From an uncultured Methanosarcinales archaeon (GTDB lineage Archaea; Nanobdellota; Nanobdellia; Woesearchaeales; CAYZNE01), in contig CAYWRI010000002.1 of the NCBI GenBank assembly GCA_964461035.1, positions 11,129 to 75,128 of the forward strand: a stretch of DNA of 64,000 nucleotides, given 5' to 3'. Below, in pieces: positions 8,363-34,010 of this stretch. The position numbers and the translations under genes are program-made. Position 1 is the first letter of the stretch. Every line of letters begins with the position of its first letter. The notes beneath the pieces are model-generated. The model worked only from the letters and a program-made list of their open reading frames with translations, was not told the origin of the DNA and did not search any database.

Positions 8363-11300
8363 TTAGTTACTACATATTCCTGTTGCGACAGTACAAATAT
8401 ATCCAAGTGAATAGCAATCCAAATCATTTCTACAATCGCAAGCAACATCCGTTCCAGTCCATCTAGGTATATTATCATAGAATAGTGGATCTCCCGTTGT
8501 GATTTGACAATTAGTTTGTTGACAAGTAGAATCACATATGTTTAATTCATGAACATAACCTATTGAGTGTTCATCACAAAAACTACTCGCACCACATCCT
8601 TCTTCGCACACTCCAGGATTAAGATTTCCTAAACCTTGTTCATGCGAAATGTCATTACAATCAACACAATCTTCTCCGCCCGGTGTTGAATCACAAGAAT
8701 AATAAATACTGCATTGATCATTACTATTACATTCACCATAACATCCAAAATCACTCGAGCCAGGATCAAAAGTTGTATTAAAAGAATAAGGTAAACAACC
8801 TATTACTCCACAACTCATTAAACAACCTTTTTCATATCTATTTGCAGGAACTGGGCCCGGAAGTTCTGTAAAACTATATCCTGGATCTTCTGTATCACAT
8901 CTAGAATCCCCATTACAATTAGAACTACAATAGCAATCAGTATCTGTAGTTTGTTGACAATTACCTGTATCAATATTTTCAGTATTTCCTCCGCAGAATG
9001 CTCGCGTACAATAAATTGCATTTCCTGGAGCAGTACCTACAGCAAAGACATTTGTTGCTAGACCATTCTTTCCTTTCATAACGTTTATATCTGTACTGTT
9101 GTAACATGCCTGGTTTCTACAAGGATAATAATGAGTTGGTAAGGGGTTATTGAATTCTTTAAATGTATCTCCAGGGTCATATATTTTACATCCAGAAGGA
9201 ACAGTTAGATCTGTAGAATCAAAATAAGCTGGGGGAGGACCAATACATTTAGCTATTTGATTTGCAGGCATATTATCATAACACTGAAAAGAATTATCAT
9301 AGTCTGCATCCGCATTTCCTTGACAAATATTTCCTCTTGTTCCGTCACAATTTCTTTTGAATGTTCTTAAAAATATATCATTTTCATAAATCACATCAGT
9401 TGTAAAGCTTGCAAAATCATTTGTGAAAACTCCTCCACCTTCTGAATCATTAATAAATCCAGTATACCATTCGTCTGTGTTTTGAAAAAAATATTTATAA
9501 GAAGAATATTCTGAAATATTAAAACATTCATTTGAACTATCTTCTATTTCACCCCAAGTTCCAGATGTATTAGAACAACAAACATGTTCTGCTTGAAAAT
9601 TATTTATAGTAGAATAAAAATGAGTAGAATACGGAAATGGAATTGGATAATTAGTACTTCTATGAGGAAGACATTGGTAAATATCGACAAATATTTCATC
9701 AATAGAATTTATACCCTGACCATATTGAATATTTCCTCCTCCAATATCAAGACCTGTTTCTAATCTTATCATCACATTTTCTCTAGAAGTTTCACCAGAA
9801 TTAAAACTTTCATTTTTAAAAAATTCAGCTATAATTGTAAATATGTTAAAAGGTGTATTCGGAAGAATTGTTATTGCATTAGTTGTTCCAGTTGTTGTGT
9901 AAGGATCAAAGTTTTCATGCCACAAAAACCAAGTATCTGAAGAAGGATTAAATGGATCATTTATAATGACATAGGAGTTTGATGCATCTAAAATATAAAC
10001 ATCTTCAACTGATGCATTTCCATCACCAATATCATCATACTCATTAGACCCATTTGCAATGGCAGAAGGAAAATCTCTAACCAAAATATTTATGTCTTGC
10101 CAATCTTCTAAACCATTGGAATCCCAAGTTGTTAATTTAACTGTGTGTAATCCTAAATCTGAAAGATTAGTTTCGTAAGTCGCATTTCTTGATGTTAAGA
10201 AAAAACTTGGTGATGTTTGCCAATAATTATGAGGGTCAGATATTTGAGGTCCTTGACAATCTAAAGCATTTCCACTTGGAGGTGGCCAACAATTAATATC
10301 AAATACAGTATAATTATCTGCTCTCCAACCTTCATATTTATATCCTAAAACATCTGAATCAGGATCATAACCCTGGGGATCAAGAACAATTGTCTTATTA
10401 TTAAATACAACCATATTGATTTCATCCGATAAATGTCTATTTATATAATCAAGAGCAGGTCTTCTGTTTTCTATTAAAAAATTAAATAGTGATGGTTTAC
10501 CTTTCAGTATTGATGCATTATCTTTAATGACAACTAAATCAATACCATTCTGAACATTTTCTATTTTATTTACACTTATTTGGTTATCAAAACATCTTGT
10601 TCCATCTCTGAGTGTGCATGGAATTTGCGAGGATCTAGATATGTTTTTATAGTCCTGAACATCAAAAAATATATCAAATGATTCATATTTAAGTATTGAA
10701 TATATTAATTCATAAATTTTAGTCATTCTCACATTTTTAAAATCTTGAAACTTTAAAATTTCAGATACTGGCTCGCCTTTTGGCCAAGTTAATATAACTG
10801 GATAATCAATTTCAACACCGATTGAATCTATTGAAAAACTCACTTTGGCTGTGACATTTCCTGTTGATATATTATAACTTCTTTGAGTTTTTAATCTTGA
10901 AATATTTACACACTCAGCCACTTTATCTTCAATATAGTATTCTAATTGACTTTGAATTGTAGTCAAATTAAAATTGTTATATATGTTATAATTTGAATGG
11001 TGATAACATTCACTAAACTGATTGCATAATTTAGGATAACTTATTTCACCATATAATCCTTCAGATCTATCTGGCTCTGGCCACCTTCTGAATCCGTTTA
11101 TCCTTTGAATAAAACTATCTGGAAGTATAATATAAGGTTCTGCTTCTTGAGGATATGCGGGAGCATTTTGAAAAGAACTAGATAAATAAGGTGGATATTG
11201 TCCTGAAGTATTAGTAATCTTGAGTCCTAAACTTATATTAACAAATTTAGACTTATTTCCTTCAGAATAAGGATTTTCTGAACTTAAAGTTATATTACTA

Positions 11301-11647
11301 ATGTTTAAATTTACATAATTTTCCCCTAAAACATAATTTACTGTAGACATTGCTCCGCCTTGATAATCATAAATAATGCCTCCTTGTAGTGTTATTTTTT
11401 CAATTGCATCCGCACTAACTTGATCAAGGCAAGCGCTTATATAATGTTCAACACTCGATGTTTCTATAAATGTGTGGAGTGCTTTTTTAGATTCTGCCTT
11501 TATTTTTAAGCTAGCAGTATCTGCAACAAGAAATATCATTAATCCAAAGACTATAATTATGACGATGCCCATAACAAAAAATATAGTCATTTGGGCAGTA
11601 TTATCTACTTTATTCCCCTTTTTTTTAATAGCCATACCAATAGCCAT
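8363..11647 (-). CDS. Giant secreted or membrane-anchored Cys-rich surface protein (1094 aa). It has an N-terminal TM/signal segment, many N-x-S/T sequons, and a C-terminal ~330 aa that is extremely Cys-rich.
   Basis: N-terminus MAIKKKGNKVDNTAQMTIFFVMGIVIIIVFGLMIFLV, dense NxS/T sequons, and dozens of Cys residues in the last third. Confidence 0.7.
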   Translation of the reverse strand: MAIGMAIKKKGNKVDNTAQMTIFFVMGIVIIIVFGLMIFLVADTASLKIKAESKKALHTFIETSSVEHYISACLDQVSADAIEKITLQGGIIYDYQGGAMSTVNYVLGENYVNLNISNITLSSENPYSEGNKSKFVNISLGLKITNTSGQYPPYLSSSFQNAPAYPQEAEPYIILPDSFIQRINGFRRWPEPDRSEGLYGEISYPKLCNQFSECYHHSNYNIYNNFNLTTIQSQLEYYIEDKVAECVNISRLKTQRSYNISTGNVTAKVSFSIDSIGVEIDYPVILTWPKGEPVSEILKFQDFKNVRMTKIYELIYSILKYESFDIFFDVQDYKNISRSSQIPCTLRDGTRCFDNQISVNKIENVQNGIDLVVIKDNASILKGKPSLFNFLIENRRPALDYINRHLSDEINMVVFNNKTIVLDPQGYDPDSDVLGYKYEGWRADNYTVFDINCWPPPSGNALDCQGPQISDPHNYWQTSPSFFLTSRNATYETNLSDLGLHTVKLTTWDSNGLEDWQDINILVRDFPSAIANGSNEYDDIGDGNASVEDVYILDASNSYVIINDPFNPSSDTWFLWHENFDPYTTTGTTNAITILPNTPFNIFTIIAEFFKNESFNSGETSRENVMIRLETGLDIGGGNIQYGQGINSIDEIFVDIYQCLPHRSTNYPIPFPYSTHFYSTINNFQAEHVCCSNTSGTWGEIEDSSNECFNISEYSSYKYFFQNTDEWYTGFINDSEGGGVFTNDFASFTTDVIYENDIFLRTFKRNCDGTRGNICQGNADADYDNSFQCYDNMPANQIAKCIGPPPAYFDSTDLTVPSGCKIYDPGDTFKEFNNPLPTHYYPCRNQACYNSTDINVMKGKNGLATNVFAVGTAPGNAIYCTRAFCGGNTENIDTGNCQQTTDTDCYCSSNCNGDSRCDTEDPGYSFTELPGPVPANRYEKGCLMSCGVIGCLPYSFNTTFDPGSSDFGCYGECNSNDQCSIYYSCDSTPGGEDCVDCNDISHEQGLGNLNPGVCEEGCGASSFCDEHSIGYVHELNICDSTCQQTNCQITTGDPLFYDNIPRWTGTDVACDCRNDLDCYSLGYICTVATGICSN

Positions 11648-14737: not shown

Positions 14738-14942
14738 GAACAGAGTTGCTGAGAATTAAGTACTGCGTTGCGAACATAGTTCTATAATTCATTTAATTTT
14801 ACTTGGAAATCTTTCATTAAAGAGGAATGTGTCCTGTAATTTGTTGTACATTATACACTCTACAAATAAAAACATATTTAAATAGTAATATCAAAAATAT
14901 ACATATCATTTAAATCATATGTATTTTGAGGGGGAGAGAAGT

Positions 14943-17900
14943 ATGAACAATAAAACACTTTTTAACATTCTAGTATCACTCATTTTTTTATTAATATTCA
15001 CATCTAATATTGTTGCAGACCCTCCGAACTATGCAAATACTCTTGAAGAGCTTTTAATTGGTGAGGATGTTTTTTGTAATACAACTTTACAAAATAGTAA
15101 TCCTGATGATTGTCATTTAGTAATTACTTGTGATGGAACAACTTTTGATAGTTTTGTACTATACACTAATTACTACTTTAATTATCTTATAACAGAACTT
15201 ACATCTACAACTCATTTTATACAAGATTGTCCTGGTGTTTTTGAATATGAGTATAATACTCCCGAATATCCTACAGGTTGCAATCCAGTTGGTTTAACTT
15301 GTGCATATGGTAATTGTATATATGAAGATGGTGAAACTTCAAACATACCCTCTGAATTTACTGATCATTGTTTTTGCGATGATGATGCACAAGCCGATTC
15401 AACCCATCCTTATTGTTGCGTTGTTGATGAATTGGGTATAGTATATGATGTTGAAACAGATTGTGGTTCAGGCATAGCTTATGATACTTATTCAATGAGT
15501 GGTTCTATTATTCCTAATCCTAGTTCTCCAATACTTTTGAATACTTCTTATTATACTAGTTTTGTTATTAGTACGAATGGACAACAAACTAATCCTGATT
15601 CCTTAGGAGCTTTTACTATTCAGAATCTTATTTCAGGAATTTATACATTATCTGCAGAATTAACTTATCCTTCAGGAACTTCTAATGTTTATTGTTTGGG
15701 TCAAGTTATTAGAACAATTTCTAATGCACCTATTATTAATGCAGACATATCTGTTACTTGTAGTCTTTTACCTGGTGGTGAACCAAGTGCATGTGATAAT
15801 GGTTGTTATGATGAGGGTTGGCAAAACTCAGGAACTTTAGATTATTGTAATGCTGAAATCTTAACAACTTTTGCTCTCATCGATGATTATTGTGTGGCTT
15901 GTCCAACATCTCAATTATGTGATGGTCAATGCACTCCAAATGATTGTGATGAAACATATCATAGATTCTGTGATGCTAATTCTATATGGCACGATTATTT
16001 TGATGAGCACACCCTTTATTGTGACGAATGTTTTGGAGATGAAATATGTGATGAAATGCCTTGTGAAGCGCCTTATAATTGTGATGGTGAAATTAATGGT
16101 TATTGTCTAACAGTTTTCGATGATCCTGATGTAGGTTCAGGTTTGTGTACTTATACACTTACTTCTGGTGATTTTTTAACAGATTATCTTTCGATTAGTA
16201 GTAATCCACTTCTAGAGCACGCTTGGTGTGATAGGGAGCATAGTGATTGGGTTTATGCAGACAGCATTGTTCCTGTCGATTTAGAAACATATTGTGCTCA
16301 TTGTTCTGGAGATTTAGAATATTGTACAGAGCCTGTTTGTGGTGATGGGCAAGTTACTGGTTTAGAAACTTGTGATTTAGGATATCCTTGGGGAAATTCT
16401 GAACTTTTTGTTCCTTGTTCAGGGGCTTTTGTTTGTGGTCAACCTCAGGGATCATTTTCTTGTCAATGTATTATTGATAGTTGTGGTACTGGAGGATACC
16501 AACCAGGATTAGAAGACTGTGAAGAAGATACAGATTGTATTAATCCCGCATTTATCTGTAATGATCAATGTGAATGTGTAATGAGTACTAGTTGTGATTT
16601 TGAAGATTTTTCAACTTTAGCAAATGTTACTTATAATGAAGTTATGTGTACAGATGACTTAATAATAGTAGTAACCTTACTTCCAGCATGCTCTGATTTA
16701 ATTGATGAAATTATAATGTTTGAAATCATTACAGGCGTTCCTTATGTGCTAGATACTCAAGAAATTACTAATCCAAACATTCTTACTTACGAATTTACTG
16801 ATACACTTCCTGCTGAAACAGAAAAACAATATCAAATAGAATTAATTAGCCATTCTGAGTTTGTAGATATTACTGCGTCTTTAACTTCCGAACCTATTGA
16901 TGCGGGCGATCCTGCTTGTGTGAATTGGAATCCTATTGAGGGAGATTGTCAGGACTTTAGATGTAATGATACTGGCACTTCTAGATTATGGTGTGGGTTT
17001 GAAAATGAATTAAGTGAAGAAGGTTGCACTGGTAATTGTATCTATAATCTTGATAGTATTGCAGTTTGTGATAATGATGCATATTCTTTAGATGCATGTC
17101 AAAGTTGTATGGGTATGGCTGGTTTATTTTACAATCCTAACACGGTTTTTTCTGGAACTAATGACTTTTGTTACTCTTTTTTCCCTCCATTCGGTGCAAA
17201 TATTGAATGTTTTTTAGATTCTTGGTTTACTATTGTTGATCAGGCAAGATCTTGCGCTGAAGTAACAAGTTGTTATGATTATAACTCAAAAGATAATTGT
17301 GTTGGTAATGATAATTATGTTGCAGATCCTTGTGGTATTTCTAATGCAGATGGTTGTGAATGGGTTAATTATAATGTTCAAACATCAAGAGGTATTTGTA
17401 GGCCAAGCAATCCTGCTTTATATGATTGTTCATCAGCAATGAATAAAAACACAAATTCATTATTTCTTTATAATCAACGTGGCGACACCACCACTAATAA
17501 TGTTTTATTGTCAAAAAGAGTTTGTGAACTTTATGGTGATTGTTTTTATACAGATATAGACAATCCTGTGCCATCTAGTGGCTTACAAGAGGGTTATAAT
17601 TGTGTAAATTATGATGGATTAAAATGTTCTTATTTTACAACGCAGAATGCTTGTGAAAATAATTCTGTTTTTGCAATAACTCATTCAACATTTTCTCCAA
17701 TTTCTTTTGCAAGCAATCTTATTAGTTCAGATCATGCTAAATGTAGTTGGACTAATAATAAATGTATTAGAGATGCAAATGATAATAATATTGATGATCA
17801 TTTGCCTAATGAGGGGTTTGATTCTAATTATCCATTAATTCCTAAATCTGAATATAATTTTATTATGTCGCCATATGCTTTAAATGAAATACAAAGAGAC

Positions 17901-20900
17901 TTTTATGCACCCGTAACCACAATAAGTTCATTACCTGAAGGTAATTTATTTGGTAAAGATGTTGTCATAAATTTTTTAAGAGAAGATAATCTTCATCCTC
18001 CTGAAAATATTCATACTTATGCTTGTCTTTATGAAGGAGAATTTGATTCTACAGGTCAAAATCTAATTCCTGATGAATGTAATCCTGCAAGTGAAGGAAA
18101 TGATTGGGACTATCTTGAAGATGGAAATTTTGAACACTTATTTGAACCCCGATCACTTTCTACTATTTTAGTTTATACTTTATATTATTTCTCAGCAGAT
18201 GAATCTAATAATTTTGAAACAATAAAAAGTGAAGTACTTCATATTAATCCAACTCTTCCTTTAATCAATGTTAGTTATTCTTATGAATCATATCCTATAA
18301 ATAATCAATACTTTAACGATTTAGCTGTAACTATATTAGTAACATCTGAGTTTCCAGCGCTTTGTCAAATACAACTTTATTCTGGGCTTGGTGAAGAAAT
18401 TTATCCTGGAGAAGGAATCAATGAACCAATATCATTTATAATTAATTCAGGGGATACAATAGATTTTCCATATTACGAATTATCTGATGGTATTTATAAT
18501 TTTCAAGTTCAATGCACTGATACTTTTTTAGGAAATTCTAATTCTGCATCAAAAGAAATGAGAATACAGGGAGATACAAGAATAAATTCTTCACCCTTTT
18601 ATGAAGTTCTTAAACAAGAATATGTTAACTTTACTGTTCAAACAGCAAATCCTGCTGAATGCTATTATTTAATTAATAATATAAAACACAATTCTGACTT
18701 CGAAACTGTTTATGATCGAGATTCCCAATCTTATAGTGTTATGAAATCTTATTTTGAATCTTCACAAGACTTATCTGATGAAAACTTTGTTGTTAAACAG
18801 TTTGATTCTTCAGAAGAACCTGAAGAAGATGGTTTATATTATCATTATGCTAACGATGTAAACTTTTCAAATCCAAGAAATGTTTCAGGAGTTTATGTTT
18901 ACAATGTTGCATGTAATATAACTATTTACGATCCAGAATTAGAACAAAATGTTTCTGAAATTGTAGAAGGAAATCCAATGCACAGGATAGTTTTTTCTCA
19001 GGATTATACTGCTCCACAAACAGCAATTAAAATGAAAGATTGGAATGATGATTCTTTTGAAGTTTATAATCTTAATTCTGTTTGGAGTCTCGGGCCAAAT
19101 GTTAGTTTTGCATGTAAAGATTTAAATTATTTTGATGATTATTTACCTCTTTGGTTAGAATATGATTCTGATCCAAGAAGAAATTATTTTGTAGAATCAA
19201 ATGTGAATCTTTCAGCAGGTTGTCTAGAACAAAGTAGTTTGAATTTTTGTAGAGTCGGCATGGGTGAAAGTCCTTGCGATCTTCAGCCAATATCGGTTCA
19301 ACCATATACTTTTCTTTTCGAAGATTATGATTGCGAAATTGTAGGATACATTACGGGTATTTGCGAAGTGGTTGGTGTTGGAGGTAATACTGGAGGTCAT
19401 TATAAGAGAGTTTGTTACAATACTATTGATGCACTTGGAAATCAAAGACCAACTTTTTGTGGTGATGTTAAAGTAGACAATGTCGCTCCAGCGTATAATA
19501 GGATAAGTAATAACGATTTTATAGTTTATATGCAACCAATGAGTGAACCACTTACAACAATCGGTCTGGGCTATTATCAGATAGAAATAATTGTTGACGA
19601 AGTTCCTGCAGATTATGATATAAGTCTTTCTATTGCATCAGAAATACTGATTGATCTTGATGAATTTTTTGATGAAGATTCAATGACTCTTTCAGCAACA
19701 TTTATTCCTCATCATTATTTTCCCGAATTATATAATATTAGTGAAAACTTAACATTTAAAATTTATTTAGAAGATGCGCATGGTGTTAGTGATACTTATT
19801 ATAAATATAATTACCTTATTAATACAACTTCTCCGCCAGTACCTCTATTTGAGCCGTTACTTAATGAATTTCATAAACTCAATTATCAAATATTAGATAT
19901 TTTAGGAAATATTTATCCCTTGTTTTATGTTCCAGAGTATTTACTTGATGCAAATGCATATTCATTAGCAAATTTTGATTTAAATGAAACTTTCTTCACT
20001 TATCTTGATGATTTAATAATTACAGGGTTTAGTAGTGCAGATAGTTTTGAACTTGTTCTTAATGACTTAGTAGATGAAAACGCTTTGAATATTCATACTA
20101 TTGATACTTTTATTGCTAATGAGCACGAGTTTATTGACGAGACTGTGCCATTATTAACTGTTCCAATTGTTAATTCTATTGATTACAATAGACAAGGAGA
20201 TATAGAAATATATCTTCCTCACAATGATAATTTAGAAGATATGGTTGGTGCAAGATTAGGTTTACCTATTGATGAAAATAATTATGATTTTGGTTTAGCA
20301 CACGCAGAACAAAAGCAAACTGCATATGGTTCATATTCAAAATTCTATACAGTGCTTAGTATTGCTGAGGATCATATTACTTTAAATGGCGTAGAAGATT
20401 TTCATGTTACAAAATACACTCTTGATGTGTCATTAGAAGAAGATTTGGAATTAGATAAGAATGTTAGTATATATTCCTCGTCTAGTTTAATAGAATCTTA
20501 TCCAAGTAATTACGTGGCTCTTCAGATGCGGGATGTTGAATATAAACAAACTTGTGATCCTAATTCTGGCGGTAATTTCTATGATCTTTCTATTCGTTCA
20601 AAATTTGGAAATGCTGCAACAACAATTGATTCAGAAAAAGTTTTTGTCGATACTGAAAGTCCAAGAGTTGCATACATAACTTTACCACAAGGAACTTATT
20701 CAGAATTAACTCCTGAAATTGGATTTAGCATTATTGAAGGGTCTTGCGGTTCAGGAATAAATATTGATGATTCAAATCTTAATATTATTATAACTGAAAC
20801 GGGTGAATTATATCGACAAATTTCATTATCAGAAATTTTAGTTGATATTTCAGAACCATTCAGTGGAATTGATGTTGCTTATAGCTTTTTATATCAGACT

Positions 20901-22091
20901 CCTGACACTGAACCTTTTGAAAATAATGATTATACAATAGTTGTTGATGCATATGATTATGCAATGAATCCTGTAAGAGCTAATACTTGGTCGTTAAACA
21001 TTAATGATAATGCACCTTCAACACCAATTGTTGAAGTTACAAATGCAGATCCAAATTACGGATTTTGGAATAACATATTCTTTGTGGCTGAATCACCAAT
21101 TATTCAATTAACATTTGCAGAGGGCGAATTAGTTGATTTGATAAGTGTCAAATTATTAACTGAAACTTCTGGTTTTAATTTAGATTGTCGTCAAGTATTT
21201 GATGGGAGTTTTATTTGCACTGTTGACAATCCTGCTTTAATTGAAAATAAAATTTCAATTATTGAAATATCTGCACAATTACTTGACACTGGCGGTTATC
21301 CACTTCGTGTTTCAATAGCTCATTGGTATGATAAACAAGTATCTTTTGACACGGGCGTTCCGAATTTCGAAGTTGATAATTTACCTGGTGCAATTCAACC
21401 AACTGAAGAATTTTCTTGGACAAATTTTTTGATTCTTCTAACGAATCCCGAATTAGATTTATTAGTTAATATATCTGAAGTTCTTGGTGAAGGTTCTCCT
21501 TGTTCAAATTATTTGTTATCTAATTTAAGCAGAAGTACAGATAATTTAACTTATTCTGCAATGTTAAATGCATCTTACTTTGGATGGGCGAGTTATAATA
21601 ATTACGAATTTCAAATAAGTGTTTTTGATAGGGCAATGAATCAAGTTTCTTCAGAATATAATATCTGGGTTGACGATATTCCTCCTGAAATAAACATTAC
21701 TGAATTTAAATCAAACGGAATATATATTTCGCCAGAAGAATTAAATATAACAACAAGCGATTTAAATATATCCATAGGTGGTGTTGTAAATGATTCTGCC
21801 ATGAAACATATTTGTTTAAATGTTTCCAGCGATGCAACATCATATCCTGAAATAACATGTCAATATCCCTGTCTTGAAGGTCAGACATCAGATTGTATAA
21901 CTGAAGATAATTTATTTACTTTTAATTTTACAATGTCCTTTGACTCTTATGTGAATCAAGGTGGACTTGTTTGGAATTATATAAATTTAGTTGCAACAGA
22001 TGATGCATTAAATAAAGAGCAGGCAAATTTAACTGCTTTGCTTGACTTAGAACCACCAACTGTTATAGGTGTATTTGTAGATATAGAGTGA
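14943..22091 (+). CDS. Giant secreted adhesin-like protein (about 2382 aa). It has a Sec signal peptide, a Cys-rich N-terminal region and multiple Ig-like domains. The track start at 14919 is replaced by the ATG at 14943.
   Basis: A strong SD-like 'gagggggagagaagt' sits 0-8 nt before the ATG at 14943. Signal peptide MNNKTLFNILVSLIFLLIFTSNIVA|DPP. Repeated domain-boundary motifs of the D-x-[ST]-x-P type: VDTESPRV, DNVAPAY, DTGVPNF, VDDIPPEI, LDLEPPTV. Very acidic. Confidence 0.8.
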   Translation: MNNKTLFNILVSLIFLLIFTSNIVADPPNYANTLEELLIGEDVFCNTTLQNSNPDDCHLVITCDGTTFDSFVLYTNYYFNYLITELTSTTHFIQDCPGVFEYEYNTPEYPTGCNPVGLTCAYGNCIYEDGETSNIPSEFTDHCFCDDDAQADSTHPYCCVVDELGIVYDVETDCGSGIAYDTYSMSGSIIPNPSSPILLNTSYYTSFVISTNGQQTNPDSLGAFTIQNLISGIYTLSAELTYPSGTSNVYCLGQVIRTISNAPIINADISVTCSLLPGGEPSACDNGCYDEGWQNSGTLDYCNAEILTTFALIDDYCVACPTSQLCDGQCTPNDCDETYHRFCDANSIWHDYFDEHTLYCDECFGDEICDEMPCEAPYNCDGEINGYCLTVFDDPDVGSGLCTYTLTSGDFLTDYLSISSNPLLEHAWCDREHSDWVYADSIVPVDLETYCAHCSGDLEYCTEPVCGDGQVTGLETCDLGYPWGNSELFVPCSGAFVCGQPQGSFSCQCIIDSCGTGGYQPGLEDCEEDTDCINPAFICNDQCECVMSTSCDFEDFSTLANVTYNEVMCTDDLIIVVTLLPACSDLIDEIIMFEIITGVPYVLDTQEITNPNILTYEFTDTLPAETEKQYQIELISHSEFVDITASLTSEPIDAGDPACVNWNPIEGDCQDFRCNDTGTSRLWCGFENELSEEGCTGNCIYNLDSIAVCDNDAYSLDACQSCMGMAGLFYNPNTVFSGTNDFCYSFFPPFGANIECFLDSWFTIVDQARSCAEVTSCYDYNSKDNCVGNDNYVADPCGISNADGCEWVNYNVQTSRGICRPSNPALYDCSSAMNKNTNSLFLYNQRGDTTTNNVLLSKRVCELYGDCFYTDIDNPVPSSGLQEGYNCVNYDGLKCSYFTTQNACENNSVFAITHSTFSPISFASNLISSDHAKCSWTNNKCIRDANDNNIDDHLPNEGFDSNYPLIPKSEYNFIMSPYALNEIQRDFYAPVTTISSLPEGNLFGKDVVINFLREDNLHPPENIHTYACLYEGEFDSTGQNLIPDECNPASEGNDWDYLEDGNFEHLFEPRSLSTILVYTLYYFSADESNNFETIKSEVLHINPTLPLINVSYSYESYPINNQYFNDLAVTILVTSEFPALCQIQLYSGLGEEIYPGEGINEPISFIINSGDTIDFPYYELSDGIYNFQVQCTDTFLGNSNSASKEMRIQGDTRINSSPFYEVLKQEYVNFTVQTANPAECYYLINNIKHNSDFETVYDRDSQSYSVMKSYFESSQDLSDENFVVKQFDSSEEPEEDGLYYHYANDVNFSNPRNVSGVYVYNVACNITIYDPELEQNVSEIVEGNPMHRIVFSQDYTAPQTAIKMKDWNDDSFEVYNLNSVWSLGPNVSFACKDLNYFDDYLPLWLEYDSDPRRNYFVESNVNLSAGCLEQSSLNFCRVGMGESPCDLQPISVQPYTFLFEDYDCEIVGYITGICEVVGVGGNTGGHYKRVCYNTIDALGNQRPTFCGDVKVDNVAPAYNRISNNDFIVYMQPMSEPLTTIGLGYYQIEIIVDEVPADYDISLSIASEILIDLDEFFDEDSMTLSATFIPHHYFPELYNISENLTFKIYLEDAHGVSDTYYKYNYLINTTSPPVPLFEPLLNEFHKLNYQILDILGNIYPLFYVPEYLLDANAYSLANFDLNETFFTYLDDLIITGFSSADSFELVLNDLVDENALNIHTIDTFIANEHEFIDETVPLLTVPIVNSIDYNRQGDIEIYLPHNDNLEDMVGARLGLPIDENNYDFGLAHAEQKQTAYGSYSKFYTVLSIAEDHITLNGVEDFHVTKYTLDVSLEEDLELDKNVSIYSSSSLIESYPSNYVALQMRDVEYKQTCDPNSGGNFYDLSIRSKFGNAATTIDSEKVFVDTESPRVAYITLPQGTYSELTPEIGFSIIEGSCGSGINIDDSNLNIIITETGELYRQISLSEILVDISEPFSGIDVAYSFLYQTPDTEPFENNDYTIVVDAYDYAMNPVRANTWSLNINDNAPSTPIVEVTNADPNYGFWNNIFFVAESPIIQLTFAEGELVDLISVKLLTETSGFNLDCRQVFDGSFICTVDNPALIENKISIIEISAQLLDTGGYPLRVSIAHWYDKQVSFDTGVPNFEVDNLPGAIQPTEEFSWTNFLILLTNPELDLLVNISEVLGEGSPCSNYLLSNLSRSTDNLTYSAMLNASYFGWASYNNYEFQISVFDRAMNQVSSEYNIWVDDIPPEINITEFKSNGIYISPEELNITTSDLNISIGGVVNDSAMKHICLNVSSDATSYPEITCQYPCLEGQTSDCITEDNLFTFNFTMSFDSYVNQGGLVWNYINLVATDDALNKEQANLTALLDLEPPTVIGVFVDIE

Positions 22092-25000
22092 TAACTTTAA
22101 AAAATAAAAAAAGAGGTGTAGGGCTTTCAGTTAAGAGCTTAAATTTTTTTATTTCTTTCTTATTATTAGTTATGACTATATCATTACTTACTTTACCCGT
22201 AAACGCAGATGATATTATTAAGTATTCAAATAATGCTTATCCTGAATTAACAATAAGTTTTTCAGAACCTATTTTACTAAGTAATGTAACTGCAAATGTT
22301 CGTTGTGCAAATGAAGATGGAAATTGTTTTCAACTATATGACACTCTTGATTCATTTGCAACAGTTTCAAATGATGGAATATCTGTTCAATATGGTCCAA
22401 ATTCAGACAGTTCTGTAATAGTATATTCATTAAATAGACCTTTGTTAAGTGATACATATTTATTTGAAACAACGGTTTCAGACTTACTTGGAAATGAATT
22501 AATTGATTATGAAATTACTTTAATTGTAGATTCTGAATCAGAAAGTATTGAGCTTATTGAACCAATTCAGGGTTGGGCAAATTCAACTTCATTTGATATT
22601 GTTGTTGAAACTCAATTACCCGGTTCTTGTTGGGCTAATCAAGAAGATTTTAAATTTTCACCAAATTTAGATAACACACATCTTTTTACTGATTCAACTT
22701 CAGGAATGCGACACACAATATCTAATATCGCTATTTGGGGAGATGATGCAATGGTTCGACATTCGCCATATGATCTTTATGTTGTTTGTAATTCTTCTAA
22801 TGCGGCAAACTCAAATAAAATTTATCTAGGTCATTTTATATTGGCGTGGGATGATACTCCGCCTAATTTAAATTATCATCCTGAATTTCAATATACTGTT
22901 CTTGATATTACAGAACCCTATGTGGATATGATTATTGAATCAGATTATATAACTGGAGATCCTCCCGATGAAATTGCTTGTAGATTAAAAAATTTAACAG
23001 AAGACGGAATTTCAATACAAAATTCACCCTATGAATTTTTTCCTAATATTAATTATTCTGACTTATGGAATTACACAAAAACAAATACGAAGCGTTTAGA
23101 TTTTTCATATATTCTTGACGGTGGAACGCCTAATGGTGGAGTGCATGAGCCCCATGAGTATAGATTTGAGGTTTCTTGTAGAAATACTGCTAGACTCAAA
23201 CCAACACCTTTTGAAAGAATATATGATATCACTGTGCAATTTGCTGATACATTTAGAATTGAAAAATTACTCCCTCATGATTATGTTAATGCAAATCCGG
23301 TTTTTATAGAAGTAAAAACTTCTGTTGTAACAGACGCTTGTAATATATCTGCTGAAGGTGCATCCTTAGATGAAATAGAACAAATGGTTCAAATTGTTGA
23401 TGAAAAAACATATGCTATATCTTTAAGTGGCTTAGAAGAGGGAACTCATTCTTACGAAGTAACTTGTTACTCTCACATATATACTAGCTCAGGATTGTTA
23501 AGCTTTGATTTTGTTGTTGATAGAACATCACCTTCACTCTTAGATATAAATTCTCTTGTCAAAACTTGCTCGCTTAATTCTTTTGAATTTGAATTATATG
23601 CAGAAGACAATGTCGGTCTTAATTATTTTAAATATAATTTTACGGGAGTTAATGTAAGTATTCAAAACATCATTAATTCAGAAGATACGGAGGACACTGT
23701 AAATGTAGAATTTGATGATTTAGAGTTAATTGAAAATCAAACTTACACAATAACTGCGTGGGTTTATGATCTTGCTAATAATTCTAAAGGTCCTGTAACA
23801 AAAACAATTACTGCTTCAAAACCTAATGATCTTGTTTGTGATTTATATCCTCCATCAATAACACTTAATGTTATTAATGAGTCTATGGGAGAAGTTACTG
23901 TAAAACTAAATTGTCAAGACTCTGGAAGTGGATGTTCTGATAATTATATTTTAGAAAGATTAGGAAATCTATCACATGCTTGCTCTTATTATAGTGGTCA
24001 CGAAATGCCTTTCTCAGACAATATTATAATTTCCTATGACACAAAAATATGTGCGCAAGCACACGATTTATCAGGTAATAGTGTGAATAAATCTTGGATA
24101 ATTGAAGTTCCAACAAATCTTCCTCAATATTGTCAGAATAATGTTAAAGATGAAGATGAATCAGGGATAGATTGTGGTGGTAGTTGTGTGGGGTGTTCTT
24201 TAGATTCTCCTTGTTTTTCAAGCACTGATTGTGTTTCAGGCATGTGGTGCGATCCTACTTTAAATCTTTGTAAATGGGCATCTTGTGATGATAAAATAAT
24301 GAATGGTCAAGAAACAGATATTGATTGTGGCGGTCCAGATTGTACAACTTGTTCAATTAATAGCTCTTGTTTAACATCTGATGATTGTGATAGTAATTAT
24401 TGTACTGCAGAAGGTATTTGTTCTTTATCATCCTGTTCTGATGGAATCATGAATGGTTTTGAAACTGATGATGATTGTGGCGGTCCAGATTGTACACCCT
24501 GTCAAAACGAAAAGGATTGTGATTTTGACACAGATTGTCAAAGTGGTTGTTGTAATTACGGAACTTGCGATGATTGTTCTAGTTCACCTTCACCTCTACC
24601 ACCTCCCCCTCCAAAAGATATTGTTTCGCTCATATTATTAATAGTTGGAATAGTTTTAATTTTGGCAGGAAGCGCTTATCTTTATTACTTGCATGCTAAT
24701 AAATTAAATTCTTCAAATACGCAAATAGGTTTTTCAGATTCTTTATCAGATTCTCGTATTTCAAAATCTAAACAATTAAAAACTCATTTAACAAAAGAGC
24801 AATTATTATCTTTAACCAATAGAAAAAAGCAAATGCGTAACAAATTTAAATCTAGAAAAACAGATAGATTATCTGAAATAGAAACAACCATGTCAGAATT
24901 TGATGAAAAAACTCTCGGAGTAAAAAAAGAAAAAAAAGACCAAACAACTAAAAAAGTTGAAAAACTTGTTGATAATATGGATTTAAAAAATAAGCAAGAT

Positions 25001-25735
25001 AATAATAAAACAGACGATGATAATAAAAAAATAAAAGAAAAACTTTCTGTTGATTTTCCTGCAAAAGATTTTATTTCGCTTAAAGAATTAGAAGAAAGTT
25101 CTGTAGAATTAATGAATAAAGATAAGAAGTTTAAGGATAAAGTTATGACTGATGTTTTTGCGCAATTAGAAAAATTACACGCAACAAAACCAGAAATAAA
25201 AAAAGCAAAGCAAAAAGATAAATTATCTGTTTATTATGATGGAGTTATTCCTGTTGAAGATGAATCTCCTATAGAAACTTTAGAAAAAACTAATTCCTCT
25301 AAAAAAGATTCTTCAAAGACAACTTCTAAAACAGCTTTAAAAATAACTTCAAAAATATCTAAAAATTCAAACAGTAAAAAATCAAAGTCTACAAATTCTA
25401 TGCCGTCTTCTAAAAAAGACGATGATGTTTTTTTGGCTCTAGAAAAAATTTCAAATTCCTCTTCAAAAACATCTTCTAAAAAAGATATAGAACTTAAATC
25501 TGATTCAATTAATTTTAAAAATAATCTTAACGCAGATACGGATAGTATGATTAACTTATTTAAAACTAATGAGTTAAATATTGATGTGTTTAAAGTAATA
25601 CTGTCCGAACTTTTAAACTCAAAAAAACTAAATAAACAAGATGTTTCAGGAATAATATTTAGACTTCTTGAACAAAAACTAATAAAAGAATCTAAAGCAA
25701 ATAAAATATTAACAGAATTAGGGTTATTAAATTAA
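22088..25735 (+). CDS. Type-I membrane surface protein (1215 aa). Order: signal peptide, Ig-like domains, three tandem Cys-rich modules, poly-Pro stalk, TM helix, and a ~350-aa Lys/Ser-rich cytoplasmic tail.
   Basis: GTG start overlaps the stop of the previous gene (GTGA). Signal peptide ...LLTLPVNA|DD. Ig-like boundary motifs WDDTPPNL, VDRTSPSL, CDLYPPSI. Three modules of the form D-x-D-CGG-x2-C-x2-C...MNG-x-ET. Stalk LPPPPPK, TM IVSLILLIVGIVLILAGSAYLYYL, then a K/S/D low-complexity tail. Confidence 0.8.
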   Translation: MITLKNKKRGVGLSVKSLNFFISFLLLVMTISLLTLPVNADDIIKYSNNAYPELTISFSEPILLSNVTANVRCANEDGNCFQLYDTLDSFATVSNDGISVQYGPNSDSSVIVYSLNRPLLSDTYLFETTVSDLLGNELIDYEITLIVDSESESIELIEPIQGWANSTSFDIVVETQLPGSCWANQEDFKFSPNLDNTHLFTDSTSGMRHTISNIAIWGDDAMVRHSPYDLYVVCNSSNAANSNKIYLGHFILAWDDTPPNLNYHPEFQYTVLDITEPYVDMIIESDYITGDPPDEIACRLKNLTEDGISIQNSPYEFFPNINYSDLWNYTKTNTKRLDFSYILDGGTPNGGVHEPHEYRFEVSCRNTARLKPTPFERIYDITVQFADTFRIEKLLPHDYVNANPVFIEVKTSVVTDACNISAEGASLDEIEQMVQIVDEKTYAISLSGLEEGTHSYEVTCYSHIYTSSGLLSFDFVVDRTSPSLLDINSLVKTCSLNSFEFELYAEDNVGLNYFKYNFTGVNVSIQNIINSEDTEDTVNVEFDDLELIENQTYTITAWVYDLANNSKGPVTKTITASKPNDLVCDLYPPSITLNVINESMGEVTVKLNCQDSGSGCSDNYILERLGNLSHACSYYSGHEMPFSDNIIISYDTKICAQAHDLSGNSVNKSWIIEVPTNLPQYCQNNVKDEDESGIDCGGSCVGCSLDSPCFSSTDCVSGMWCDPTLNLCKWASCDDKIMNGQETDIDCGGPDCTTCSINSSCLTSDDCDSNYCTAEGICSLSSCSDGIMNGFETDDDCGGPDCTPCQNEKDCDFDTDCQSGCCNYGTCDDCSSSPSPLPPPPPKDIVSLILLIVGIVLILAGSAYLYYLHANKLNSSNTQIGFSDSLSDSRISKSKQLKTHLTKEQLLSLTNRKKQMRNKFKSRKTDRLSEIETTMSEFDEKTLGVKKEKKDQTTKKVEKLVDNMDLKNKQDNNKTDDDNKKIKEKLSVDFPAKDFISLKELEESSVELMNKDKKFKDKVMTDVFAQLEKLHATKPEIKKAKQKDKLSVYYDGVIPVEDESPIETLEKTNSSKKDSSKTTSKTALKITSKISKNSNSKKSKSTNSMPSSKKDDDVFLALEKISNSSSKTSSKKDIELKSDSINFKNNLNADTDSMINLFKTNELNIDVFKVILSELLNSKKLNKQDVSGIIFRLLEQKLIKESKANKILTELGLLN
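24165..24580 (+). repeat. Three tandem copies of a Cys-rich module of about 48 aa (about 145 nt) within CDS 22088..25735.
   Basis: IDCGGSCVGCS..., DIDCGGPDCTTCS..., DDDCGGPDCTPCQ.... The stretch 'gattgtggcggtccagattgtaca' is identical in copies 2 and 3. Confidence 0.7.
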
Positions 25736-25771: not shown

Positions 25772-26260
25772 GTGAATAAAAAAGCAATAACAAAACAAAT
25801 CTTTACTTTTCTAATGGTTGCGATATTAATAGGACTACTCTTTTTATTTGGCATAATTAGTGCTAAAAACTTATTAACTCAAACTTGCAAAGCACAAAAA
25901 GCGCTATCTCAAAAAGATATTATGGACGCAATATCTGATTATAATAGTAAAGATTCAGCGCATACAGAATCAATAATTCTTTCCTGTGATTATACTGAAA
26001 TATGTTTTTTAGATGCGGAAAGACTTAAAACAAACTCTCCACCAATAACCAACATTCCTTACAAAGTAATGCAAGATGTAGTAACTATTCAAGGAGATTA
26101 TAATATATTTTTCGTAAAAGGAGATGTTGTTGAACCAATTGGATTTTCAAATAAATTAACTGTTGAAGGTGATGGAAGTCTTTGTGTTACTTCAACAGGC
26201 AATAGTTTTAAAATTATTTTTGTGGGTAAGGGAAGAACAACAGCAGTAAGAACAAGTTAA
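25772..26260 (+). CDS. Type IV pilin-like protein (class III signal peptide), 162 aa.
   Basis: SD-like 'aggtga' before the GTG start. N-terminus NKKAITKQIFTFLMVAILIGLLFLFGI is a short basic region followed by an uninterrupted hydrophobic helix. Confidence 0.55.
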   Translation: MNKKAITKQIFTFLMVAILIGLLFLFGIISAKNLLTQTCKAQKALSQKDIMDAISDYNSKDSAHTESIILSCDYTEICFLDAERLKTNSPPITNIPYKVMQDVVTIQGDYNIFFVKGDVVEPIGFSNKLTVEGDGSLCVTSTGNSFKIIFVGKGRTTAVRTS

Positions 26261-26270
26261 TAATTTTAAA

Positions 26271-26720
26271 ATGATATTTTCAAAAAAAGCATTTACAATA
26301 CAATTTAGTTGGATTTTTATTTTAATAGTTGGATTTTTTGTAATGTTTCTAGTAATAAGAATAATAACTTCCCAGACAGATGTATCTAAACAAGAAATAA
26401 ATTTGGATTTATCTAAGAATATAGATTCTATTTTATCAAGTGCAGAACAAAGCACAGACACTTTCAAAATAGTTCATACACCTGAACTCAAATTAACTTA
26501 TTTGTGTTTTGAAGATTACACCGCATATTCTGTTCAGAAAAATATAAATAAAATAGAAAATTCAATAATGTTTTCTTCTTCATCAATATCTGGAAGAAAT
26601 ATTTATACTTGGACAAAAGAGTATAAAATGCCTATGAAAATAACAAATGTTCTCTATGTTACTGACCCGCTTCATAAATTTATTTTTGTTGACGGGTATC
26701 CTGTTATTGATTATTGTTAG
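26271..26720 (+). CDS. Type IV pilin-like protein, 149 aa.
   Basis: N-terminus MIFSKKAFTIQFSWIFILIVGFFVMFLVI. Confidence 0.5.
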   Translation: MIFSKKAFTIQFSWIFILIVGFFVMFLVIRIITSQTDVSKQEINLDLSKNIDSILSSAEQSTDTFKIVHTPELKLTYLCFEDYTAYSVQKNINKIENSIMFSSSSISGRNIYTWTKEYKMPMKITNVLYVTDPLHKFIFVDGYPVIDYC

Positions 26721-26725
26721 ATTTA

Positions 26726-27289
26726 ATGCCTTCAAATATAACTAGGGAAGTTGTTAATAGTATTAATGACATAACTGATAATAATTATAATCAGTATATA
26801 ATAATGACTGCTACTTCGTTATCAGGAACTATTTTAAATGGTTTTTCCCCCATGTTTCTTAGAAAAATAATAGCTTTACAAATAACAACAGTTCCGGGTC
26901 AAGAAAATAAAGGACAAATTACTTTTTACAAATTTGATGATAATGGTCAGTCAGCAGTTGTCGGAGAAAACGAGTATGACTATATTGATGAAACTCTTTT
27001 GTTTGGCGCAATATTTACTGCAGATCCTTATTTGTACAATTGTACTGCAAATAAACTATTTGAAAAATCAAAATCAATATATCAAATATATAATTACACC
27101 GCAACAAAAATGAATCAAGCAACAACAAGAGTGATATGCAAAGATCCTTCAAGAGGGTATCTTTCTGTTATTAGTATATTGGAAGATATGATTACTTCAG
27201 ATTCTTCTAATACGATTTACGAAGATGCAATTCAGCTTCGATCTAGAAATACTTATCTTCAAAGAAGCGATTGTCCTCTTGCATATTAA
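26726..27289 (+). CDS. Hypothetical protein in the pilin operon (187 aa, no N-terminal helix). The track start at 26714 is TTG; the ATG at 26726 is preferred.
   Basis: Sits between pilin-like genes in the same orientation. Confidence 0.4.
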   Translation: MPSNITREVVNSINDITDNNYNQYIIMTATSLSGTILNGFSPMFLRKIIALQITTVPGQENKGQITFYKFDDNGQSAVVGENEYDYIDETLLFGAIFTADPYLYNCTANKLFEKSKSIYQIYNYTATKMNQATTRVICKDPSRGYLSVISILEDMITSDSSNTIYEDAIQLRSRNTYLQRSDCPLAY

Positions 27290-27339: not shown

Positions 27340-27849
27340 ATGACACTAAAAACATTAAATAAAAAAGCGCAACTTCAAATAACTGAAAATGTAGTTATAA
27401 TTATAATCATAATTTTCATATTTATTATTGGAATTGTTTTTTATAATAATGTTAAAAAAATTACGTATGTTGAAACAGTAAATGAATATTCTGACCTTGA
27501 TTTAGTAAAAGCAAGCCAAAAAATAACAAATTTACCCGAATTAAGTTGTTCTTTTAATGAGCAAGTAGAAGTAGGTTGTGTTGATGAATTAAAACTTGAA
27601 GCAGTTATTGCATTAGATTTATTGAATACATCATATTCTTATTATTATTCCATATTTGGAAAATCAAAAGTCATAATAAATACAACTTTTCCAGAACAGG
27701 GCAAAGGTTTTGTTATTTATGATAGTAAATTATCTGGAGACTATAATCAAATTCCTTTAGTTATTCCTATAAAAGTTTACAATCCTATAAACATGACAAC
27801 CAACTTAGGTTATGTTCAAATATTAAAATACACAGAGGTTTTTAATTAA
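27340..27849 (+). CDS. Type IV pilin-like protein, 169 aa.
   Basis: N-terminus MTLKTLNKKA|QLQITENVVIIIIIIFIFIIGIVFY. It has K-K-A|Q with Gln at +1 and Glu at +6, matching the archaeal FlaFind-type pattern. Confidence 0.65.
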   Translation: MTLKTLNKKAQLQITENVVIIIIIIFIFIIGIVFYNNVKKITYVETVNEYSDLDLVKASQKITNLPELSCSFNEQVEVGCVDELKLEAVIALDLLNTSYSYYYSIFGKSKVIINTTFPEQGKGFVIYDSKLSGDYNQIPLVIPIKVYNPINMTTNLGYVQILKYTEVFN

Positions 27850-27851: not shown

Positions 27852-28370
27852 ATGGTGTACTCAAAATTTCCTTCAAAAAAGGCACAAGTTGAAATTATGG
27901 GTCTTGTAATAATAGTTATTTTAATTGTAATAATAATATTTGTTGTTCTTGTTTTCATGTTAAATAAAAAACCGAATGAGGTTGTTTCAAAGTATTCTGA
28001 TTCTCAGTATCCCACCGCATTTATTCTTGCACTTTTAGACACAAGTTCTATGTGTCAAGACCATGTTCCAATAAAAAGTTTAATTTATGATTGTGCTGTT
28101 GACAAGAGAATTCATTGTCCAAGTTCAGATACTTCTTCTTGTAAATATTTGAATGAATCTCTTACACAAATATTTGATTCAACATTAAATGCGTGGGGAG
28201 AAAATTATGAATTTAAAATGGATCACGCAGCATTTATTCACTACAATAATTTTACTTTTTCATCTGGTTGTGGTCCTTATTCAACTGTTGAAACTAATCC
28301 CTTTCAAATTATTCCTTTGTGGCCAAGAAGGGATTTTGTCAGAGTAAGCATGAAAATATGTTCTAATTAA
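27852..28370 (+). CDS. Type IV pilin-like protein, 172 aa.
   Basis: N-terminus MVYSKFPSKKA|QVEIMGLVIIVILIVIIIFVVLVF. Confidence 0.65.
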   Translation: MVYSKFPSKKAQVEIMGLVIIVILIVIIIFVVLVFMLNKKPNEVVSKYSDSQYPTAFILALLDTSSMCQDHVPIKSLIYDCAVDKRIHCPSSDTSSCKYLNESLTQIFDSTLNAWGENYEFKMDHAAFIHYNNFTFSSGCGPYSTVETNPFQIIPLWPRRDFVRVSMKICSN

Positions 28371-28415: not shown

Positions 28416-29105
28416 TTAATTTTCAGTAACGTGAATATTAAATTCTTTTGTAAATAAAGGCATTTTAGAATCCATTTTTTCATAGGCTTCAAGAATTATT
28501 GTACAATAGCCTGATTTTATTTTATTCATGTCAAATTTATTAAGATCACTTATTGGTTTTGGTAACTCAAGTTTGAATATGAGTGGTCCGTCAGGATTAA
28601 AACAAGGAGTTCCATCATTTAATTTAATTTCAAATTGTATGACGGAATAATTAAAATATCTGTGTGGTGCATATAACTCAAAATGTATTACTTCAGGTTC
28701 ATCTATTTCAATTAGATTTTCTTTTTCTATTTTAGGAAATAAATATTGCTTATCTGCAATACTATTAAAATAATAATTAAATTCAATTTTATCTGTAGGA
28801 TTGATTTCAGGTATACAACAAACTAAATCTTTTGTTGCTTCTTTTGTGTCTTCATTTGTTAAATCTAAACAAGCTCCTCTAAATGTAGAAACTCTTTCAC
28901 TTGAAAGACACATATCTTTACTTGTAACACAAATACCTGGTTCTCCAGGAACTATAAAACATTCTCCATGTTTTTCTAAAGCTGGATTTATTATATCAAC
29001 CACATTAGGTATTATGTTTAGAGAGATTAATAAAACTATAATAACTATTATCAGGGTGGCTATCATCCACATTACATTAGAATCCGCTTTTTTAGTATTT
29101 TTCAT
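28416..29105 (-). CDS. Type IV pilin-like protein with a Cys-rich knot ending in the 'VCCIP' motif, 229 aa.
   Basis: N-terminus MKNTKKA|DSNVMWMIATLIIVIIVLLI, then C-x-C-x-C...LVCCIPE. Confidence 0.6.
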   Translation of the reverse strand: MKNTKKADSNVMWMIATLIIVIIVLLISLNIIPNVVDIINPALEKHGECFIVPGEPGICVTSKDMCLSSERVSTFRGACLDLTNEDTKEATKDLVCCIPEINPTDKIEFNYYFNSIADKQYLFPKIEKENLIEIDEPEVIHFELYAPHRYFNYSVIQFEIKLNDGTPCFNPDGPLIFKLELPKPISDLNKFDMNKIKSGYCTIILEAYEKMDSKMPLFTKEFNIHVTEN

Positions 29106-29172
29106 TTTTTGATTTGTTCAAATTGTTTTATGTTTGTTAAATACGTATAAATTATTATTTTTAATACAATTT

Positions 29173-31270: not shown

Positions 31271-31326
31271 ATCTATTTACTTTTATAAATTCTAAAAATT
31301 ATAAATAAAAATTAAATATTATTTTT

Positions 31327-31584: not shown

Positions 31585-31607
31585 TTTTTATTACCTCATT
31601 AGTTTTT

Positions 31608-34001: not shown

Positions 34002-34010
34002 TTTTAAACA

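Follow-up and report, generated by a model that had tools for sequence, protein, structure and literature searches.

What do two giant, overlapping genes encode in the very small genome of an uncultured archaeon? DPANN archaea live attached to hosts, and the machinery with which the large uncultivated groups of the Woesearchaeota/Pacearchaeota type attach and carry out exchange is poorly defined. We analyzed a 64,000-nucleotide stretch of archaeal contig CAYWRI010000002.1 (assembly GCA_964461035.1; hereafter the window), in which a preliminary description had singled out two adjacent genes, p1 and p2, as a co-transcribed pair of giant adhesins. Their adjacency proved to be real, and the pair proved to be part of a module of up to seven genes, A to G, that includes prepilin-like proteins; p1 is gene B and p2 is gene C of this module. 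In the explanation we favor, to which we give about an even chance, a previously unannotated DPANN surface module has p1 and p2 as its large subunits, B and C, and both belong to one membrane-anchored extracellular assembly. Judged from its components, the module would most likely build a disulfide-rich, membrane-anchored fibre or coat on the cell surface. Occupying about 13 kb and joining an extracellular giant to a conserved cytoplasmic domain, it is a concrete candidate for an envelope or attachment apparatus.

Two overlapping giant genes

The p1 open reading frame (ORF) spans 14919..22091 (+). The likely start is the ATG at 14943, because a Shine-Dalgarno (SD)-like GGGGGAG lies 7 nt before it (14929-14935) and a normal Sec signal peptide begins there; from this codon, gene B extends over 14943..22091 (+) and encodes 2382 residues. 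The region upstream (14877..14942, +) also contains two archaeal TATA-like boxes, TTTAAATA (14877-14884) and TTTAAATC (14909-14916), which constitute a putative p1 promoter. Gene C (22088..25735, +; 1215 residues) starts at GTG 22088, the first possible start after the upstream stop, and shares the 4-nt sequence GTGA (22088..22091, +) with the p1 stop codon, TGA 22089-22091. The gene lengths and the overlap given by the preliminary description were confirmed by the ORF coordinates, as were the strong SD and the Sec signal peptide of p1; p2 was found to possess a signal peptide too. The GC content of the window is 24-33%, and the two ORFs, of 7.1 kb and 3.6 kb, lie in DNA of 28-33% GC. Given their length, the low GC and the full-length homologues found for both, p1 and p2 are not chance ORFs.

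The window encodes TrmB and the origin-associated proteins OapB and OapC, and its valyl-tRNA synthetase (ValRS) is 65-71% identical to those of metagenome-assembled genomes labelled Woesearchaeota, Nanoarchaeota or 'archaeon'. Loci related to p1 and p2 carry genes for L21e and Rpb4. On sequence grounds, the source of the window is a DPANN archaeon of the Woesearchaeota/Nanoarchaeota type. The same DNA, identical in sequence, is present in an ENA contig (L001) and in a JGI metagenome contig (L095).

A conserved gene module

An exhaustive HMMER search with p2 residues 1-875 as the query (E<=1e-3) returned 6121 proteins, most of which match the Cys modules only, a single protein having as many as 18 matched stretches. 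Some 25 are full-length C relatives of 950-1240 residues and 41-29% identity (for example P0002, at 41%, P0008 and P0012), all of them named 'hypothetical protein' in the databases. These share one layout, consisting of a signal peptide, an ectodomain, three Cys modules, a transmembrane (TM) helix and a tail. What had been described as an unusual domain order in p2 is that of the whole C family. A literature search found no published description of the module, of its B and C families or of the tail domain. The homologues recovered by exhaustive HMMER and by tblastn/BLAST refute an orphan reading of p1 and p2. A word-indexed search had returned only p2 itself, and nothing for p1 or for an ectodomain alignment, an artefact of the low-complexity tail flooding the candidates and of giant proteins that are apparently unindexed. 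With p1 as the query, no related loci were found among genome and metagenome contigs, and a closer alignment set, A6, gave eight.

A full-length B homologue of 1935-2469 residues adjoins every C homologue looked up. We compiled 13 distinct related loci, comprising the genomic sites of 11 C relatives and two metagenome loci. Ten of them (L082, L083, L086, L087, L089, L092, L093, L094, L097 and L099) show the order A-B-C-D-E-F-G, complete or cut by a contig end; the most distant members, L090 and L103, one of them high in GC, keep B-C-D; and L091, a 4.5-kb contig, shows B-C only. The predicted products measure about 1000 residues for A, about 160-175 for D, 326-354 for E, 154-193 for F and 147-183 for G. 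p1 is 33% identical to the L082 B protein over 2544 alignment columns and 26-30% identical to others. B and C adjoin in all 13 loci, in most of which the genes overlap or lie only a few nucleotides apart (the 4-nt overlap recurs identically in L091); p1 and p2 are translationally coupled and almost certainly co-transcribed. Within the module, B, C and D are translationally coupled.

In the window, gene A (8363..11647, -; 1094 residues) has a prepilin-like N-terminus, …NTA/QMTIFFVMGIVIII, and a Cys-rich C-terminal part, and was identified by its 31-38% identity, over 821-1095 aligned residues, to the gene that immediately precedes B in L083, L086 and L087. Elsewhere A directly precedes B, whereas here it is inverted and two multi-TM genes stand between it and p1, an arrangement that we read as a local rearrangement relative to the other loci. 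The two multi-TM proteins (11710-14737, +; 541 and 483 residues) give a weak PMT_2/GT-C-like match (E 1.6e-4), and homologues of their genes adjoin ValRS in L002.

Anatomy of p1

The Sec-type signal peptide of p1 comprises residues 1-27 (14943..15023, +; N-terminus MNNKTLFNILVSLIFLLIFTSNIVA/DPPNY). Hydropathy shows this signal peptide only, and the protein has no TM anchor. Composition and alignment then define a Cys-rich acidic region at residues 45-945 (15075..17777, +): 74 of the 97 Cys of p1 lie within residues 1-950, together with 141 Asp and Glu and only 18 Lys and Arg. The preliminary description had recognized the Cys-rich, acidic character of the N-terminal part; its extent, put at about 600 residues, reaches to about residue 945, and the CxxC spacings, said to be many, number only four. 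An alignment of seven B sequences with 21-36% identity (A2) is collinear end to end and contains about 40 invariant Cys, some 20 of them in the best-conserved Cys-rich block, residues 650-945. The least conserved part, residues 45-560, shows 14-20% identity with insertions and deletions, as would be expected if it were the contact end of the protein.

Residues 986-2382 (17898..22088, +) form a predicted array of beta-sandwich, immunoglobulin (Ig)-like domains, delimited by D-x3-P boundaries and profile matches. The motifs lie at residues 986, 1354, 1512, 1903, 2136, 2244 and 2368; across the seven homologues D and P are both invariant at all of these positions except 1903, where D alone is. 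Pfam Big_13 is matched by four of the seven B relatives (the best E values across B and C relatives are 2e-16 and 3e-11), and the B profile matched the SiiE BIg domain (2yn3) among PDB sequences with E 2e-7 at positions 1845-1935. Comparison of alignments A2 and A3 with hhalign revealed that p1 residues 1074-1363 (18162-19031) are paralogous to p2 residues ~224-488 (probability 95%, E 3e-8), so that B and C are partly paralogous. BLAST detected neither this paralogy nor internal repeats in the two proteins, and the relationship is seen only by profile-profile comparison.

p1 ends in …DLEPPTVIGVFVDIE, 10 residues past its last D-x3-P boundary (22059-22088). In 11 of 13 homologues (L082-L099) the B protein likewise stops 8-12 residues past such a boundary, in an alternating hydrophobic stretch. 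This terminal stretch looks like the 'orphan' first strand of an Ig-like domain that is absent, and, purely as a hypothesis, it might lock onto C or onto a pilin-like subunit by strand complementation. B relatives in the two most distant loci carry strong CarboxypepD_reg repeats.

A single, collinear module kept across divergent lineages is what would be expected of a core envelope part, and this raises the main rival explanation, an S-layer-type pair in which B would be the outer canopy and C the membrane stalk, following the logic of SlaA and SlaB, with the pilin-like genes being separate. The S-layer candidates of Nanobdella aerobiophila share these traits (10.1101/2023.10.27.564410). We regard such a pair as unlikely, though deserving serious consideration. 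Searches of Pfam, NCBIfam and PDB sequences linked the pair to no S-layer family, whether by sequence or by profile, and B, with 2382 residues and 97 Cys, greatly exceeds SlaA and the Nanobdella candidates in both size and disulfide richness. Also against it are the conserved cytoplasmic tail of C, 140-370 residues long and containing a folded domain, and, in almost all loci, the tight operon link to a set of four or five genes for prepilin-like proteins, both described below. To our knowledge, such a tail is not a feature of SlaB-type anchors.

The ectodomain of p2

Only two stretches of p2 are hydrophobic: residues ~11-40, within the signal peptide (residues 1-40; 22088..22207, +), and residues 846-872, the TM helix. 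The structure of p2 was modelled by AlphaFold2 with a 17-sequence alignment, at a mean predicted local distance difference test (pLDDT) score of 70 and with model numbering 15 below that of p2. Residues 43-672 (22214..24103, +) were modelled as all-beta with pLDDT 70-94, forming about six Ig-like or fibronectin-like sandwiches. The breaks between model domains at D255-P259, D478-P482 and D585-P589 coincide with D-x3-P motifs; the earlier proposal that these motifs mark Ig-like boundaries agrees with the model and with the Big_13 matches of relatives in a domain hidden Markov model scan. Foldseek comparison of the model with the PDB returned PirB (3e-19), RPTP-sigma, gp130, titin and the MG domains of alpha-2-macroglobulin. 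Big_13 scores above the Pfam threshold in 11 of 17 C family members (best E 2e-16), and the C family profile matched SiiE BIg (2yn3; 2e-6), titin, PKD and cadherin domains among PDB sequences. These data support the conclusion that Ig-like sandwiches make up most of p1 and p2 and that both are secreted or surface proteins. The label 'adhesin' is plausible for both, with an S-layer-like role as a live rival. N-glycosylation sequons (31 and 19) show no excess over an expectation estimated from composition.

Three tandem 8-Cys modules of about 50 residues each follow the sandwiches at residues 682-830 (24131..24577, +). They were recognized from their sequence pattern, C-x-[DN]-G-x2-[ND]-G-x-E-[ST]-D-[VI]-D-C-G-G-x-C-x2-C…D-C-x-S-x2-C…C, and were modelled at pLDDT 65-85 with little regular secondary structure. 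PPPPP at residues 838-842 (24599-24613) separates them from the membrane. The 8-Cys module matches nothing in Pfam, NCBIfam or PDB sequences and is present in about 6000 representative proteins, some of them high in GC and bacterial-looking, with up to 23 tandem copies by pattern count; it is an abundant uncurated module. Three proteins of 1800-2100 residues (P0086, P0030 and P0133) contain two or three tandem p2-type ectodomain segments followed by Cys modules and a TM helix, so the C ectodomain can apparently duplicate as a block.

The cytoplasmic tail of p2

The single TM helix of p2 was located by hydropathy at residues 846-872 (24623..24703, +), corresponding to a helix at 831-857 in the model. 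The 343 residues that follow (873-1215; 24704..25732, +) contain 72 Lys and Arg (21%) and no Cys, as against 36 Lys and Arg and 40 Cys in the 805 residues of the ectodomain. The same contrast holds across 16 C family members, with 28-44 Cys and 4-10% Lys and Arg in the ectodomain and no Cys and 15-31% Lys and Arg in the tail. From this contrast, the cleaved N-terminal signal peptide and the single TM helix, we strongly infer that p2 is a type I membrane protein with a cytoplasmic tail. The C-terminal order of three Cys modules, a proline run, one TM helix and a tail was thus described correctly at the outset, as was the tail's cytoplasmic location; placement outside the cell is not indicated.

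The tail had also been called low-complexity sequence, and this is not merely what it is, as it contains conserved motifs and a folded C-terminal domain. AlphaFold predicts a basic juxtamembrane helix of 60 residues at 903-962 (24794-24973, +) and a four-helix domain at residues 1143-1210 (25514-25717, +). Between them, family conservation identifies two D-V-F-x2-L-E-K-[LI] motifs (25151-25177 and 25421-25450, +), modelled as low-confidence helices. Conserved elements of the family's tails include a juxtamembrane helix, L-S-x-E-Q-L…K-F-K-x-K-S, a D-Y-V-x-L-x2-L motif, and one to three copies per tail of [DE]-x-[VI]-F-x2-L-x2-[IL], which lies at the very C-terminus in short-tailed members. The C-terminal domain, of about 65 residues (…VFKVILSELLNSKKL-x-K-x-DVS-x-IIF-x-LLE…), is present in 12 of 17 C members and, in all window and related-locus DNA, occurs only at the C-terminus of C proteins. 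Modelled alone from 12 sequences, it reached pLDDT 82-90, and Foldseek found no significant PDB fold match (best E 0.6). Motifs and domain are kept down to about 25% overall identity. A likeness of the motifs to MIM1 and of the domain to MIT (ESCRT/Vps4) was considered and rejected, as Foldseek returned no MIT match and the helices measure 10-18 residues; an ESCRT survey is silent on DPANN.

The conservation of the tail bears on the proposal that p1 and p2 are two independent, fast-evolving, host-specific adhesins that happen to share an operon, the tail being a disordered spacer. In its favor, adhesins typically have Ig-like arrays and a Cys-rich tip, and much of the tail has low pLDDT and biased composition. 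This proposal is already disfavored and we consider it highly improbable, given the persistence of the tail motifs and C-terminal domain at such low identity, the B-C-D order in 12 of 13 loci (the thirteenth, L091, ends in a truncated ORF after C) and the paralogous segment shared by B and C.

The SPEARE proteins (PMC6642349), with which a comparison had been suggested, have the same general topology as p2: a large ectodomain is followed, close to the C-terminus, by a TM helix and then by a conserved region inside the cell. SPEARE thus provides a DPANN precedent for a long intracellular tail, which had been thought atypical; the C tail domain itself still lacks a PDB match. Beyond layout the comparison fails. 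Pfam scans of p1, p2 and 24 relatives turned up neither a serine protease nor a laminin-G, toxin or type III restriction enzyme domain, the sizes are 2.4 and 1.2 thousand residues as compared with up to 8.5 thousand, and the p2 tail domain has no fold counterpart in the PDB. Membership of p1 and p2 in SPEARE, which we hold to be extremely improbable, is refuted by domain content.

C might instead be a receptor-like coupler that transmits or organizes host contact across the membrane; its multi-Ig ectodomain, one TM helix and tail with short linear motifs and a small folded domain recall the plan of eukaryotic type I receptors. B would bind the host distally, and the tail motifs and four-helix domain of C would then recruit cytoplasmic or membrane-remodelling factors to the site of contact. 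We judge this to be rather unlikely; if true, the A-G module would be the core of a Woesearchaeales-type attachment organelle.

Prepilin-like neighbors

The genes downstream of p2 encode small proteins with a common N-terminal pattern. Gene D (25772..26260, +; 162 residues; N-terminus MNKKA/ITKQIFTFLMVAILIGLL) is 33-43% identical to its counterparts in L082, L083, L086 and L087. In 11 of 13 loci the gene that comes after C matches D in size; in the short contigs L091 and L103 a truncated ORF takes its place. Gene E (26271..27289, +; N-terminus FSKKA/FTIQFSWIFILIVG) is split into ORFs of 149 and 191 residues (26271-26720 and 26714-27289) that overlap at 26714-26720; it is a single ORF of 326-354 residues in 10 related loci. 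The junction, …GATTATTGTTAG…, fits a 1-nt deletion in a short T run, and the ENA copy L001 is identical, so that the split could be an assembly error or a real pseudogene. Genes F (27340..27849, +; 169 residues; N-terminus NKKA/QLQITENVVIIIII) and G (27852..28370, +; 172 residues; N-terminus SKKA/QVEIMGLVIIVIL) were identified by homology. In five loci, by motif only, D-G, and A in L087, begin with a short basic leader that ends in KK[AG] and is followed by Q, I or F and about 20 hydrophobic residues, a pattern consistent with archaeal class III (prepilin-like) signal peptides. None of A and D-G matches a pilin family in Pfam.

A quartet such as D-G, made up of small pilin-like proteins with one larger member (E, ~340 residues), recalls minor pseudopilin sets. 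D-G, with A, might be imagined to form a short pilus or pseudopilus that exports or presents B as an effector, with C as an accessory membrane platform whose tail links it to a cytoplasmic ATPase. The conserved amphipathic motifs of the tail would suit docking of a cytoplasmic partner, and B has no anchor. Such an export system is nonetheless very unlikely: B carries a Sec signal peptide of its own, neither an ATPase nor a platform (TadC) gene lies nearby, and Pfam searches of B and its relatives reveal no domain of an enzyme or toxin. C, furthermore, is oriented with its N-terminus outside and its C-terminus inside. Bitopic assembly proteins such as GspL have the opposite orientation.

Eight more genes with KKA/Q-type prepilin-like N-termini and no Pfam match lie at 28416-35123 (-). 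Two of them are paralogues of 85 and 80 residues (31327-31584 and 31608-31850), 37% identical and with six Cys each, which look like candidate major pilins. Together with 8363-28370, this region makes up a 'dark' surface-protein island of about 27 kb.

A proposed assembly

How might these components fit together? In the explanation we favor, C would be the transmembrane anchor and stalk of the assembly, and B would be held on C as its distal part, with the variable N-terminus as the contact end. Pilin-like A and D-G would form an associated pilus-like or minor-pilin part, and the C tail would dock a cytoplasmic partner or drive oligomerization. The most likely use of such a structure would be cell-cell or surface attachment by an episymbiont.

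Several observations weigh against this assembly. Contact between B and C is deduced only from their coupling and synteny, and a full-length, collinear B with many invariant Cys fits a structural envelope component equally well. The window's own p1 and p2 gave no match in Pfam, NCBIfam or PDB sequences beyond a sub-threshold Y_Y_Y, and the Ig-like assignment draws on relatives, profiles and one AlphaFold model, that of p2, with its mean pLDDT of 70. No pilus ATPase, TadC or prepilin peptidase appears in the Pfam tables for window ORFs of at least 90 residues or for the flanks of related loci; the corresponding genes may lie elsewhere in the genome. The pilin-like proteins could, moreover, be uncleaved proteins anchored by their N-termini.

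Whichever architecture applies, three uncharacterized units could be curated as families, namely B, C with its cytoplasmic four-helix domain, and the 8-Cys module.

Other genes of the window

The genes for OapB and OapC lie beside a GTPase gene at 36716-37490 (+), and cumulative GC skew has a local minimum at ~34-36 kb; a replication origin may be located near 34-37 kb of the window. Further along, 53652-60364 (-) encodes a 1291-residue PKD/Big_9 protein, after which come VWA/BatA, DUF58 and MoxR AAA+ genes. The neighborhood is of the arCOG01314 type, proposed to specify a novel archaeal secretion or membrane complex (PMC5898192). That 'putative secretion system' was considered for p1 and p2 and rejected, as it matches 53652-60364 instead. 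A 672-residue protein with a NosD/right-handed beta-helix (pectin-lyase-like) domain is encoded at 61862-63880 (-); right-handed beta-helix proteins have been proposed as host-wall-degrading factors in Nanobdella (10.1101/2023.10.27.564410).

Comparison with known systems

Bacterial PilY1 is a large non-pilin with a Sec signal that is encoded with about four minor pilins (FimU/PilVWX). The A-G module differs in having no PilY1 or DUF2341 domain and an extra TM-anchored partner, C, and its pilus assembly is putative. A comparison with PilY1 has been drawn, by analogy, for some archaeal type IV pilus loci (PMC4858521). These encode a large 'S-layer-like' protein anchored at its C-terminus, small minor pilins rich in Cys and a large secreted protein described as 'adhesin or minor pilin', a plan that the proposed A-G assembly matches. 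Common to the module and to the pilus loci of the Pyrobaculum/Thermoproteus group (Makarova, Koonin & Albers 2016, PMC4858521) are a pair of large proteins, of which one carries a C-terminal TM helix and the other a signal peptide only, several small proteins with class III-like signal peptides, and conserved cysteines throughout. They differ in that the A-G module has no adjacent secretion ATPase or TadC, belongs to a DPANN lineage, comprises families unrelated by sequence as far as tested, and includes in C a long tail with a domain of its own.

With SlaA/SlaB of Sulfolobales and the Nanobdella aerobiophila candidates, the module shares a co-transcribed pair of an anchorless giant and a C-terminally anchored partner, both rich in Ig-like domains. 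No homology to either was detected. B, with 97 Cys, is roughly double the size, C adds three 8-Cys modules and a 343-residue tail, and the operon is linked to pilin-like genes. SlaA/SlaB-type pairs form a two-dimensional lattice and rank among the most abundant proteins of the cell. The Nanobdella candidates show Ig-like folds, in some cases together with a C-terminal TM helix, and as of the preprint that proposed them no DPANN S-layer protein had been determined (10.1101/2023.10.27.564410).

SPEARE of Nanohaloarchaeota (Hamm et al. 2019, PMC6642349) likewise combines a giant DPANN ectodomain, a TM helix and a conserved cytoplasmic region. Its defining domains, serine protease, laminin-G/adhesion and type III restriction endonuclease, reside in one very long protein (PMC6642349), whereas the product here is split into two proteins and the cytoplasmic domain is a different one, without a known fold match. 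Salmonella SiiE (2yn3/2yn5) resembles p1 and p2 in its long BIg arrays, which the B and C family profiles match with the E values given above (2e-7 and 2e-6). In contrast with SiiE and LapA, p1 and p2 have a Sec signal peptide rather than a C-terminal type I secretion signal, and no RTX family was found by Pfam. Their domains, unlike those of SiiE, are heterogeneous, with no near-identical tandem repeats by BLAST, and they are Cys-rich and come from an archaeal host. The kind of system, with Ig-like surface giants, an anchored partner and pilin-like neighbors, is already known; the B and C families and the tail domain appear to be new.

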